Source: Shigella phage JK32
Length of the DNA stretch: 64,000 bases
Sequence record: MK962753.1
Reading direction: 5' to 3' (one strand)
Below, one piece after another: positions 58,892-63,773 of this stretch; the first letter of the stretch is position 1; every line of letters starts with the position of its first letter. Below the pieces are notes generated by a model, which was not told the origin of the DNA, ran no database searches, and saw only the letters and a list, made by a program, of their open reading frames with translations. The translations under genes were made by a program, and so were the position numbers.

Positions 58892-59467
58892 TTATTTTGG
58901 ATCTGGGAAATTCAATAGAGCATATTCTCCATAAAATTTCCTAGCTGCATTATCATAAGCGATTGCAGCTTCGATTTCTGTGTCATATTGTCCAAGAACA
59001 TGTCTTTGTAGGTTGACCATTATACTAGCTCTCCATTTCTTACGCAAATCCTTCCTGTTACACTTACTAACACCCTTATACACACTAGAAAACTTTTTAG
59101 ACTTCTTCTTTCTATTATGTTGATTTTGCGCGTCGGTTGCCTCCCTAAGATTTGGAGGATTGTTATTAGCAGGATTACCGTCAATATGATCAATTAATCT
59201 AACTTGCGTCCCATGTTCTAGAAACCAAACAACCCTATGCACGAATAGATGAACTCTAGGAAGACCGTCATCTCTACTATGCCAAAATCTAAGATGACCA
59301 TCTTTATTTGTTCTGACTTTAACTAAATCGCCGTGTTTATATCTACTCCCTAATGGTCGTCCTTTGATAGCTTTACTATCGACTCTATAATATAAGATAC
59401 CCTCTATATGAGCATATCTAAGTTTTATCTCGTTTTGTAGGGATTCATCCCAATATTTAAAGGTCAT
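58892..59467 (-). CDS. free-standing HNH endonuclease with AP2-type domain (paralog of 28242-28796)
   Basis: HRVVWFLEHGTQ...IDHIDGNPANN and YKGVS...WRASI segments. Confidence 0.65.
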   Translation of the reverse strand: MTFKYWDESLQNEIKLRYAHIEGILYYRVDSKAIKGRPLGSRYKHGDLVKVRTNKDGHLRFWHSRDDGLPRVHLFVHRVVWFLEHGTQVRLIDHIDGNPANNNPPNLREATDAQNQHNRKKKSKKFSSVYKGVSKCNRKDLRKKWRASIMVNLQRHVLGQYDTEIEAAIAYDNAARKFYGEYALLNFPDPK

Positions 59468-59512
59468 TTTATAATCCTCACAAAGCCAGCGATTAAGCTG
59501 GCTTTATTTTAG

Positions 59513-59902
59513 TTATACCGGGTCTGGATATACCTTTTTATCGAGTTCCATATGCGGTCCGTCTTTAAAAGTAACCCAATCAACACCGCAGATAACAGGA
59601 ACACCCAATTCTCGACCAGCTTGTTTAAATGCATCAGCGATCATGCGGTAATATTTCATGTTCCATGTATCCTTATCTTTAGGATACGCTACAACGTCAA
59701 CCGCGAAACCGTGAAGATGACGAGATTTCATAGTCTTAGATTTACCTTCCGCAACATATTTCTTTTGCGTTTCTAGACTACGCACACCTTCCGTAATACC
59801 AAAATCGACCGGAGTCAGTTCTAATGCACGATGAACGACTTTTACTAGGTCTGGATGTACACCAACAAGCCGATCTTTGCTTCTTTGAGATAATTTAAAC
59901 AT
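59513..59902 (-). CDS. endolysin, peptidase M15-type (L-alanyl-D-glutamate peptidase-like)
   Basis: SRHLHGFAVDV and DGPHMEL zinc-binding motifs; 129 aa. Confidence 0.7.
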   Translation of the reverse strand: MFKLSQRSKDRLVGVHPDLVKVVHRALELTPVDFGITEGVRSLETQKKYVAEGKSKTMKSRHLHGFAVDVVAYPKDKDTWNMKYYRMIADAFKQAGRELGVPVICGVDWVTFKDGPHMELDKKVYPDPV

Positions 59903-59930
59903 TATTCACCCCCTTTGTGAGTGATAATAT

Positions 59931-60122
59931 TTAGATTCCGGTGATCCTGCATAGAGTTCTTGTATTAGCACCAATCAGGATCGCATTAACGACAACCATT
60001 CCCCAATCAACCCACTGATTATTATAAATGCTAAACCCGTTTGCAAGACCAAATACAAGCATTCCGGTACACATACTCAGAGCAATAATCAACATCACGG
60101 TAAAACCAAATGCAAATCTCAT
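59931..60122 (-). CDS. small membrane protein (lysis-cluster candidate)
   Basis: 63-aa hydrophobic ORF upstream of endolysin. Confidence 0.4.
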   Translation of the reverse strand: MRFAFGFTVMLIIALSMCTGMLVFGLANGFSIYNNQWVDWGMVVVNAILIGANTRTLCRITGI

Positions 60123-60123
60123 A

Positions 60124-60339
60124 TTATTTTCCTTTTCTCTGTTTACGTTTATAAAAGTAATACATTACCTCATCGCGTCCGGTGATCCAACATGCTAGGG
60201 CAGTAAACAGGTTTACAATTCCCAACACACCTACGGATGCGGCGCTGTCAACAGACATAGGAACAGTAAAGGCCATAGCTAACATAGCAACGCCACAAAT
60301 GACATTAAGCACCATTATAATAAGACCGAAGAAAACCAT
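60124..60339 (-). CDS. small membrane protein (lysis-cluster candidate)
   Basis: Start set at MVFFGLII after GGGAGGA; ORF track extends to 60390. Confidence 0.4.
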   Translation of the reverse strand: MVFFGLIIMVLNVICGVAMLAMAFTVPMSVDSAASVGVLGIVNLFTALACWITGRDEVMYYFYKRKQRKGK

Positions 60340-60341
60340 TG

Positions 60342-60521
60342 TCAATCCTCCCAAATAAGAAAACCAACAATCACGCCAGTGATAAGACATGATGCACCAC
60401 TAATCAGACAACCCGCGCCAAGCGATTCCCACCAGATCAGGGAAGCGACAATAACACCGAATCCCCAGACTACCGCAATCACAACATAGGCAAAGATCGC
60501 CCAAAACATATATTTGTTCAT
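60342..60521 (-). CDS. small membrane protein (lysis-cluster candidate)
   Basis: Start set at MNKYMFW overlapping upstream stop (ATGA); ORF track extends to 60533. Confidence 0.35.
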   Translation of the reverse strand: MNKYMFWAIFAYVVIAVVWGFGVIVASLIWWESLGAGCLISGASCLITGVIVGFLIWED

Positions 60522-60706
60522 AATAAACCCCATTCACCAAACAAATAAGAAAAAAGCCATATCAACAGAAACGAGGCAATTGATCCGGCAAGCAAAATGA
60601 TATTAGAGAATCCGCTGTTTATCCAGTCGATCAAACAGAATACACCAGTATAGAAGCATAATCCCATTACAAAGCATACTATAAGCAACCATAGATAAAA
60701 CGCCAT
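60518..60706 (-). CDS. small membrane protein; its 5' end lies inside the tandem duplication
   Basis: 62-aa hydrophobic ORF. Confidence 0.4.
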   Translation of the reverse strand: MAFYLWLLIVCFVMGLCFYTGVFCLIDWINSGFSNIILLAGSIASFLLIWLFSYLFGEWGLL

Positions 60707-61122
60707 AGAAAGCCCTCTAGTGAGCTAATTTAGTGCGGGTAGTACATTACCCTACCCGCATTGTTAATCATCGCAGAGCGTGTTCTAGAACGATTCCACA
60801 CCAACCGCTAACCACACCCAAACACACAGCAACAAGCAGATTCATTCGGTCTTTTGAGCAAAATGATATTAGAGAATCCGCTGTTTATCCAGTCGATCAA
60901 ACAGAATACACCAGTATAGAAGCATAATCCCATTACAAAGCATACTATAAGCAACCATAGATAAAACGCCATAGAAAGCCCTCTAGTGAGCTAATTTAGT
61001 GCGGGTAGTACATTACCCTACCCGCATTGTTAATCATCGCAGAGCGTGTTCTAGAACGATTCCACACCAACCGCTAACCACACCCAAACACACAGCAACA
61101 AGCAGATTCATTCGGTCTTTTG
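60591..61122. repeat. perfect tandem direct duplication, 2 x 266 bp (60591-60856 and 60857-61122)
   Basis: Identical sequence read twice head-to-tail; also betrayed by identical plus-strand ORF prefixes at 60733 and 60999. Confidence 0.85.
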
Positions 61123-61194
61123 GAATCATCGCAAACAGAACAACACCCACACAGAAAGCCATCACCATTGAAGTTAACATTTGTTCAACCATTA

Positions 61195-61533
61195 TCACAC
61201 CTTTAAAGTCATAGACGCATAAACATTAATGCCAGGCCAGTTAGGATCGCAATTATACTCAACATCCCACAAATAAAGCGGTTTAGATGTATCAGCCAAG
61301 TTTTTAAAATCTTCTACCCACATTTCAATGCTATATGATGGATAAACTAGGCTGTCATATCCTCCGTAACGTTGGCCTACTGGTCGGTCAGTAAAAACTA
61401 CCTCAAGATCCGGTAATTCTTTTTCAAGGATAACCGCCAGCGCATAAATCAGACGGTCTTCCTTGTTACGCTGCCGAAGGACCGTTGTCAGTTGGTTTTT
61501 CTGGTTCACTAGCAAGCACCTCCACATTTTCAC
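61195..61533 (-). CDS. hypothetical protein
   Basis: 112-aa ORF. Confidence 0.35.
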   Translation of the reverse strand: MKMWRCLLVNQKNQLTTVLRQRNKEDRLIYALAVILEKELPDLEVVFTDRPVGQRYGGYDSLVYPSYSIEMWVEDFKNLADTSKPLYLWDVEYNCDPNWPGINVYASMTLKV

Positions 61534-61786
61534 AGAATGAAATTTTCACAGACACAATTTTACCATAAGTGAAGAATGAATATACATTATCGAGATATTC
61601 AACGTCACCTACAATCACATCAAACTGCGGATCAGCAACCGCCGCAACATATTCTACCAGTTCATCAAGAGAATGCAACTTAATTTCATCAATTCGGCTG
61701 TATTTGGTTGCATCTTTAATTTTAAAACCACGTTCTTTCAGTTTGTCAATCAGAATTTCACGCGGAGTTTCAAACAGTTTGCTCAT
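61466..61786 (-). CDS. hypothetical protein
   Basis: 106-aa ORF. Confidence 0.35.
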   Translation of the reverse strand: MSKLFETPREILIDKLKERGFKIKDATKYSRIDEIKLHSLDELVEYVAAVADPQFDVIVGDVEYLDNVYSFFTYGKIVSVKISFCENVEVLASEPEKPTDNGPSAA

Positions 61787-61807
61787 AATATAATCCTCAC
61801 ATTAAAT

Positions 61808-62008
61808 CTAAAATTTGTTAACGACGAATTGCATAATTAGACTAATCACAAACATTGCAAACCAAGTATAAATGCAACAGATAAAAGCTACATACAATTC
61901 AATCTGGTCAGAGAATACACCGGGTAAAAGCATTAGCAAAATAACAACAGTAAAGACGCTAGCGATACCCGCAACAAAACCAATATCATTTTTACTAATC
62001 GTCATCAA
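61808..62008 (-). CDS. small membrane protein
   Basis: 66-aa hydrophobic ORF. Confidence 0.35.
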   Translation of the reverse strand: MMTISKNDIGFVAGIASVFTVVILLMLLPGVFSDQIELYVAFICCIYTWFAMFVISLIMQFVVNKF

Positions 62009-62202
62009 GTCACCGTTTTGTAAAGAAACACAATAAAATCCAAGACAAGAAAGACAGTGTAAATGATCATCGTCAAGACAGTAAACACTGTCAGATTTTC
62101 ATCGTTAGTTAATTCATAGTCGCCCATCCATACAATAACAAGATATAGCATTGAAAGAATGGAAGCACCTACGAAGTTAAAAACATATTCTTGAGCGTCA
62201 TA

Positions 62203-62385
62203 TTAACAACCATCGCGGCTTAAGTCAACAGCAATTGCATACAGCATAATGAATATGCTAGCAGATCCGAGAATCAATGCACCCTCACATTTTGAAACTC
62301 GCTCATCAAAATGTAACATTATCCATCCGAGGATGTTAAAGGCGCAGACCGCGCCTATGTTCGCTAACCAATTAATCTTTTTCAT
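62203..62385 (-). CDS. small membrane protein
   Basis: 60-aa ORF. Confidence 0.3.
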   Translation of the reverse strand: MKKINWLANIGAVCAFNILGWIMLHFDERVSKCEGALILGSASIFIMLYAIAVDLSRDGC

Positions 62386-62393
62386 AATATACC

Positions 62394-62720
62394 TTAGAAA
62401 GAAACAGTTTTCAAGAAATCCAGATTTTTAGTACCGAAAACAGAAAAGTAGTGTTTTCCTTTTTCGGTTTTAGAGAAAGCGATTGTCTTCTCTACATGGT
62501 GACGGAAGCCAGACAGACGATCACCCAAGTCAAGGCGGCAAGCGTAAGTAGTGCCGTTTTCGAAAGTAACCTCGATTTGAGTTTTGTCATATTCGCTTTC
62601 ATAGGCTTTTGCTGCCGCGTCCTTTGCTTTACGCTCGAAGTCTTCGAAGTGGAATACTTCGTTTGCGTTAGCGAATACAGAAGATTCAGAGAAGATAACT
62701 TTAACAGATACTGGTTTCAT
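62394..62720 (-). CDS. hypothetical protein
   Basis: 108-aa ORF after promoter cassette. Confidence 0.4.
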   Translation of the reverse strand: MKPVSVKVIFSESSVFANANEVFHFEDFERKAKDAAAKAYESEYDKTQIEVTFENGTTYACRLDLGDRLSGFRHHVEKTIAFSKTEKGKHYFSVFGTKNLDFLKTVSF

Positions 62721-62762
62721 TTTGATACTCCTTAGTAGTTCGTGTTTCGTTTCGATGGGTGT

Positions 62763-62791
62763 ATTATGCTATACACCCTCTCGCGTGTCAA
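62763..62791 (-). promoter_or_regulatory. early sigma70-like promoter (minus TTGACA 62791-62786, CATAAT 62768-62763)
   Basis: Direct reading, 17-nt spacer. Confidence 0.5.
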
Positions 62792-62799
62792 CAACTTTT

Positions 62800-62988
62800 T
62801 TAGTCTTTTTTCATAATTTCTAGAGCAGTTTCTACCGCACCTTTCCAACCTTCCCACATAATGGACATAGTAATGAAGTTAAAGCACCCGCAGAAATCAA
62901 CCTTTTTAGAGATAAACCATTCTACAAACGCTTCGCTCATACCATGCTCTTTAGCGGATTCGCGTAATTGTTCAATTTGGTCTTCCAT
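62800..62988 (-). CDS. hypothetical protein
   Basis: 62-aa ORF. Confidence 0.35.
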   Translation of the reverse strand: MEDQIEQLRESAKEHGMSEAFVEWFISKKVDFCGCFNFITMSIMWEGWKGAVETALEIMKKD

Positions 62989-63677: not shown

Positions 63678-63723
63678 AATTTGATTCTCCTAGTTAGAAA
63701 GTGTGTTTCGTTTCGATGGGGGT

Positions 63724-63752
63724 ATTATGCTATAGGCGTGATCTGGTGTCAA
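63724..63752 (-). promoter_or_regulatory. early sigma70-like promoter (minus TTGACA 63752-63747, CATAAT 63729-63724)
   Basis: Direct reading, 17-nt spacer. Confidence 0.5.
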
Positions 63753-63773
63753 CAACTTTTTTAAAAAAATTTA

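Follow-up and report, generated by a model that had tools for sequence, protein, structure and literature searches.

Introduction

From work by Arbiol et al. in 2010, promoter/stem-loop cassettes (PeSLs) are said to mediate modular shuffling in the hyperplastic regions of T4-type phages. These phages package their DNA by the headful mechanism and carry circularly permuted genomes. Both properties are documented for T4, and head-to-tail duplications form readily in T4-type phages (PMC9391042). The segmental amplifications of evolved T4 arise at microhomologies of typically 6–10 bp (2–10 bp across the work cited there), with one microhomology copy kept per junction; the amplified units span whole genes plus a promoter, and selection maintains them (PMC9391042). 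In turn, tandem repeats in deposited phage sequences may also have a technical origin, and overlapping ends of circular phage contigs are an acknowledged artefact requiring removal (bioRxiv 10.64898/2026.07.08.737226).

Here we analyse a 266-bp tandem repeat found in the first 64 kb of a Krischvirus record. This 64-kb stretch is referred to as the window, and coordinates are positions in it. Like the short-homology amplifications of T4 (dmd-tifA, Hp17 genes 16–18 and the rII duplications), the repeat is arranged head-to-tail and lies in a non-essential early region. Yet the T4 events rely on 2–10 bp of microhomology, are usually multi-copy, comprise whole genes and a promoter and are selected, whereas the window repeat has 0 nt of microhomology, two copies and neither a whole gene nor a promoter. 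With the untrimmed overlap of a permuted contig it shares perfect identity of the copies, boundaries set independently of genes, the absence of microhomology, restriction to a single record and a rotated record, but its length of 266 nt does not correspond to any standard k-mer overlap. As for the PeSLs, the common features are small ORFs in a hyperplastic region, a stem-loop between genes and, in one relative (L013), a deletion endpoint inside that hairpin. Unlike the PeSLs, however, the hairpin of the window is not dispersed and has no adjacent promoter, and the boundaries of the duplication fall within genes, off the stem-loop.

Structure of the 266-bp Repeat

We found that the two copies (Table 1) are identical at 266/266 nt, both by repeat search and by direct string comparison, and Tandem Repeats Finder describes them with a period of 266, 2.0 copies, 100% matches and a score of 1064. 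They are arranged head-to-tail, and the perfect 2 × 266-bp tandem duplication that an earlier note had read from this DNA is thereby confirmed. By self-BLAST it is the sole long exact repeat of the 64-kb window, which places it far beyond chance. The bases flanking the repeat pair mismatch at once on both sides (left, A versus G; right, G versus A), so that the junction between the copies has 0 nt of microhomology and there is no partial third copy.

Table 1. Coordinates of the repeat, the genes and elements around it, and the two assembly loops of phage Skers (window positions unless an accession is given).
Feature	Position	Strand	Description
Repeat copy 1 (upstream in gene orientation)	60857..61122	-	gene A 3' 89 nt, 61-nt intergenic stretch, gene B 5' 116 nt
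Repeat copy 2 (downstream in gene orientation)	60591..60856	-	gene A 89-nt orphan, 61-nt intergenic stretch, gene B 5' 116 nt
Novel junction	60856..60857	.	minus strand ...AATATCATTTTGCT / CAAAAGACCGAATGA...; 0 nt microhomology
Gene A, intact	61034..61192	-	52 aa (MVEQ...HALR), two hydrophobic stretches
Gene A orphan 3' remnant	60768..60856	-	89 nt including stop codon
Chimeric ORF B'	60808..60972	-	54 aa, created by junction
Gene B, intact	60518..60706	-	62 aa, two hydrophobic stretches, without charged tail
Gene B ribosome-binding site GAGGG	60713..60717	-	read directly from sequence
Duplicate GAGGG, for B'	60979-60983	-	read directly from sequence
Intergenic hairpin copy 1	61001..61025	-	GCGGGTAG-N9-CTACCCGC; 8–9 bp GC-rich stem, 9-nt loop, no U-tract
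Intergenic hairpin copy 2	60735..60759	-	GCGGGTAG-N9-CTACCCGC
Endolysin, Peptidase_M15_4	59513..59902	-	real
Skers gene A junk insertion	MW748999.1 147,527-147,673 (= L001 2567-2713)
Skers second loop	MW748999.1 78,423-78,883		176-nt exact repeat, clean adapters between copies

All local genes are encoded on the minus strand, and the order of transcription is gene A, spacer, B', second spacer, gene B. The repeat unit extends from the middle of gene A to the middle of gene B (89 + 61 + 116 = 266 nt) and duplicates no whole gene. In copy 1, the gene A portion belongs to the intact gene A, while the 5' 116 nt of gene B begin the chimeric ORF B'; in copy 2, the same 116 nt belong to the intact gene B. 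The start of gene B at 60706 (a minus-strand ATG), its GAGGG ribosome site and the hairpin in each copy had been placed correctly in the earlier note, which described the unit by its gene B part, ribosome site and hairpin but overlooked the last 89 nt of gene A with the stop codon. It had also predicted a truncated, diverging peptide from the second copy, and such a peptide is indeed encoded: the 54-aa B' consists of 39 aa of gene B, including the first hydrophobic stretch, followed by 15 out-of-frame residues (KRPNESACCCVFGCG) derived from the gene A remnant. The exact B' product has no match on record. The remnant itself holds an in-frame 25-aa ORF with an ATG start, without an obvious ribosome site.

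Gene A is a homolog of RB49p107/phi1p107 (PHROG 16035) and gene B of RB49p106/phi1p106 (PHROG 19354), both families of unknown function. The exact gene B allele of the window has no match on record elsewhere. The gene B region carries substitutions seen in none of the aligned relatives, among them a G-to-A change in the ribosome site at 60718 (CTAGAGGG versus CTGGAGGG) and, at 60612-60672, about five changes within 22 nt (TGATCGACTGGATAAACAGCGG). These private substitutions are present in both repeat copies.

The Locus in Related Phages

The region matches 58 phage records at 90–98% identity, none of them identical, and all belong to Krischvirus, the T4-type coliphages around RB49, Phi1 and JSE. 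In 57 of the 58 the homologous stretch measures 1635 bp, exactly 266 less than the 1901 bp of the window; the remaining record is that of phage Skers, whose extra bases are adapter junk. Thus, a comparison with related phage genomes, which the earlier note had proposed as a check, gives a single copy in all 58 records, and the same holds for seven independent Logan/ENA metagenome contigs. In all, ten contigs code for the identical gene A protein, namely these seven and three GenBank genomes, and each has a single copy. When one copy is taken out of the window, the remaining 545-nt stretch can be aligned without any gap to the relatives in which gene B is kept. A search with 200 bp centred on the junction found no contiguous match in the phage collection, where every alignment broke at query position 100/101, and none in the collection of E. 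coli genomes. Nor was the 29-mer across the junction found in IMG/VR, JGI metagenomes or GTDB genomes.

We determined that base 1 of the window is also base 1 of the rIIA-first records of phages Cognac and G5211. This shared rIIA end indicates that the record was rotated to the conventional T4 start after assembly, and the contig ends produced by the assembler therefore lie inside the record.

Among the relatives, gene B is absent in ELT4, L008, L012 and L013, and the endolysin is kept wherever the contig covers it. In ELT4 and the metagenome contigs L008 and L012, the deletion of gene B joins two TATGGC motifs. The larger deletion in L013 removes genes B to D and joins GTAATGTA(C/T)TAC in the hairpin loop to the same motif at the end of the fourth gene downstream. 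In turn, E26 has lost the ribosome site of gene B. The gene B locus is a hyperplastic, dispensable region.

Small Membrane-Protein Genes

Genes A and B, like the three genes that separate gene B from the endolysin, encode products of 52–71 aa with two hydrophobic stretches each. Each of the small genes A to E belongs to a PHROG family of its own, of unknown function, and no Pfam matches are on record for their homologs. The product of gene B has no charged hydrophilic C-terminal tail, as it ends in ...FGEWGLL with a net charge of -2. In the annotation of phage Skers, a T4-type holin gene adjoins the tail-fibre adhesin gene, and spanins and rI are found at other places. The naming of the locus as a lysis cluster with a holin-like gene, as in the earlier note, therefore finds no support in PHROG, Pfam or the position of the Skers holin.

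An older paralogy among five to eight of the small membrane genes was considered and rejected, the similarity being at the level of composition alone (best E ~0.01). The gene two upstream of the endolysin (60124-60339, minus strand), of 71 aa in the annotation of relatives, encodes a protein that has a strongly basic C-terminal tail (...YKRKQRKGK) besides its two hydrophobic stretches; this product looks more like a class II holin than that of gene B does, and in some records its gene is mis-annotated as "tail length tape-measure protein". A 191-aa homing-endonuclease gene with HNH_3 and AP2 domains (58892-59467, minus strand) separates the endolysin from the vs.8 homolog. It is present in JSE, G5211 and phiS and absent in Phi1, Skers and several metagenome contigs, and thus represents a mobile insertion polymorphism.

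Intergenic Hairpin and Promoters

The hairpin sequence occurs in the 64-kb window once per repeat copy and nowhere else, hence it is not a dispersed repeat. The 76-nt spacer that contains it folds at -23.8 kcal/mol (z = -2.4). Comparison of E26, RB49, ELT4 and Phi1 revealed that the stem is kept across Krischviruses while the loop is free to vary: the window, JSE and G5211 have the loop GGTAATGTA, E26 has the exact reverse complement of it (TACATTACC), and variants, or a wholly different loop, occur in RB49 (L020), ELT4 (L024) and Phi1 (L003). This pattern suggests a structural element, the loop of which may have been flipped by recombination between the stem arms. An intrinsic (rho-independent) terminator was considered and rejected, as the U-run is absent (the stem is directly followed by ACUAAAUUAG) and the terminator scan makes no call. 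Rfam covariance models gave no match at E<=1 in 59400-62600. As a guess, the hairpin may form the 3' end of an mRNA or take part in its processing. Being close to the centre of the unit and away from the boundaries, it is not implicated in the formation of the repeat.

A promoter scan of the unit returned a single weak sigma-70-like match (9/12), situated inside gene B, and no late-promoter TATAAATA was found near the unit. The nearest strong early-promoter motif is located ~1.6 kb upstream, at 62742-62802 on the minus strand, and consists of TTGACA-17-CATAAT with an A-rich upstream element. A second copy is found at 63703-63763, also on the minus strand. The motif is 61 nt long, reads AAAAAGTTGTTGACA-N17-CATAAT...CGAAACGAAACAC on the minus strand and is 85% identical between the two copies. 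It is likely a strong early promoter cassette from which the small-ORF operons, the duplicated region among them, are transcribed.

Assembly Loops in Phage Skers

The genome of Skers (MW748999) carries 263 extra bases in gene A. Having been considered as a second independent duplication, Skers was rejected as such, since the extra 263 bp are adapter and junk and another such loop exists elsewhere in the genome. The insert comprises Illumina TruSeq adapter (AGATCGGAAGAGCGTCGTGTAG, CTACACGACGCTCTTCC), low-quality read-through and poly-C junk, and is flanked by exact repeats of 118 nt and 48 nt. Both Skers loops (Table 1) are misassemblies of short library inserts, and one of them has produced a spurious annotated CDS, SKERS_245. 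It follows that tandem repeats made by assembly do occur in deposited genomes of the genus.

The Skers loop and the window repeat are found in the same genus and the same gene A, and in both an exact repeat flanks the join. Yet the Skers loops keep adapter and junk between the copies, whereas the window junction is clean. The breakpoints in Skers gene A (2712/2649 of L001) lie 1–9 nt from the equivalent of window position 61122 (61116-61122). For randomly placed sites, we put the probability of such a coincidence at ~1e-3 or less; it may reflect a hot spot of fragmentation or breakage, or chance.

Origin of the Repeat

In our view, the phage DNA probably lacks the second 266-bp copy, which would then represent an untrimmed contig-end overlap or a similar finishing artefact. 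The assembly history that we infer begins with a circularly permuted T4-type genome, for which an assembler would give a "circular" contig with the same sequence at both ends. If this end overlap were left untrimmed before rotation to rIIA, the old contig ends would become an internal repeat, perfectly identical, head-to-tail and with arbitrary boundaries. By a related route, a short library insert could have been looped via an adapter that was later excised. An origin of this kind predicts all that was observed, namely identical copies, arbitrary boundaries within genes, 0 nt of microhomology, occurrence in a single record, clean excision of one copy and a rotated record. Two observations count against it. 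None of the standard de Bruijn k-mers (55/77/99/127) has a length of 266, so that an overlap-type assembler or manual joining must be assumed, and the window contains no diagnostic adapter remnants, Ns or excess of frameshift-like or homopolymer indels relative to G5211. Indeed, the window otherwise looks cleanly assembled, which favours a genuine and very recent neutral tandem duplication that became fixed when the stock passed through plaque purification or a bottleneck. We hold this second explanation to be a tentative possibility. Such a duplication would have arisen via microhomology-independent recombination or template switching in the dispensable hyperplastic early region, would add a hairpin and express B' with its single hydrophobic stretch, and would vanish fast by homologous recombination between the copies. 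It fits with the readiness of T4-type phages to duplicate head-to-tail and with the plasticity of the locus, where relatives have lost gene B, genes B to D or the gene B ribosome site. Both gene A and gene B are intact, thus an obvious cost is absent, and 266 bp is far under the ~3 kb of headful slack in T4 (PMC9391042). However, the junction has 0 nt of microhomology, as opposed to 6–12 nt in the T4 events and the local deletions, which is unusual for real illegitimate recombination, even if a genuine event could still have produced it. The junction was also found in no other genome or metagenome searched. Moreover, the unit contains no complete gene or credible promoter, and hence nothing selectable that could be kept amid very active homologous recombination. 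The prior for finding a neutral and unstable duplication in a single isolate is small when set against the assembly repeats seen in the genus, as in Skers. The earlier note was right to hedge between a very recent duplication, a population variant and an artefact, and the evidence leans toward the last of these.

The coincidence with Skers brings in another explanation, by which the repeat would mark a feature of virion DNA, either a fixed terminus bearing a short direct terminal repeat or a nick or break at a specific site in gene A. Fragment ends would then be over-represented there and could seed real duplications or assembly errors in independent genomes. Skers is an independent Krischvirus assembly with gene A broken next to the equivalent of 61122, and 266 bp is within the size range of phage direct terminal repeats. 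We nevertheless regard this explanation as very improbable, and equally so the proposal that the duplication is real and was born at a recurrent site-specific break or nick in gene A of Krischviruses. Headful packaging of circularly permuted genomes stands against it, and none of the 57 other records starts or ends here, the nearest being the end of KFS-EC, ~0.9 kb off. The second, unrelated Skers loop at 78.4-78.9 kb shows the loops to be random short-insert artefacts, and the other boundary of the window repeat has no counterpart in Skers. No PhageTerm result on Krischvirus termini was found in the portions of the literature accessible to us. Finally, the earlier note had suggested that the duplication alters the dosage or regulation of a holin-like lysis gene, which would make it a selected change. 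The unit does duplicate a ribosome site and the conserved hairpin, and lies among consecutive small membrane-protein genes, with the M15 endolysin four genes downstream. Yet the duplication covers no more than 116 nt of the 189-nt gene B, so that the dosage of the full-length gene is unchanged; the unit has no credible promoter or terminator, genes A to E match no holin family, gene B is dispensable in nature, and in the related phage Skers the annotated T4-type holin, the spanins and rI are encoded at other places. Selection for dosage is thus largely refuted by the anatomy of the unit, and we give this suggestion hardly any credence.

Implications

If the repeat is an artefact, the record contains 266 spurious bases and a spurious 54-aa ORF, which should be removed before comparative or therapeutic use. 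The repeat matters mainly as a case of quality control, and it has no bearing on lysis control either way. Were the break-site explanation true, B' would be a new chimeric membrane ORF in the course of being born and gene A would contain a previously unknown break hot spot of T4-type phages, which would also account for the Skers fragment ends and the misassembly nearby. If the duplication is real, it would be an ordinary, probably transient tandem duplication of the T4 type, and would offer a snapshot of how chimeric small ORFs form in a hyperplastic region.
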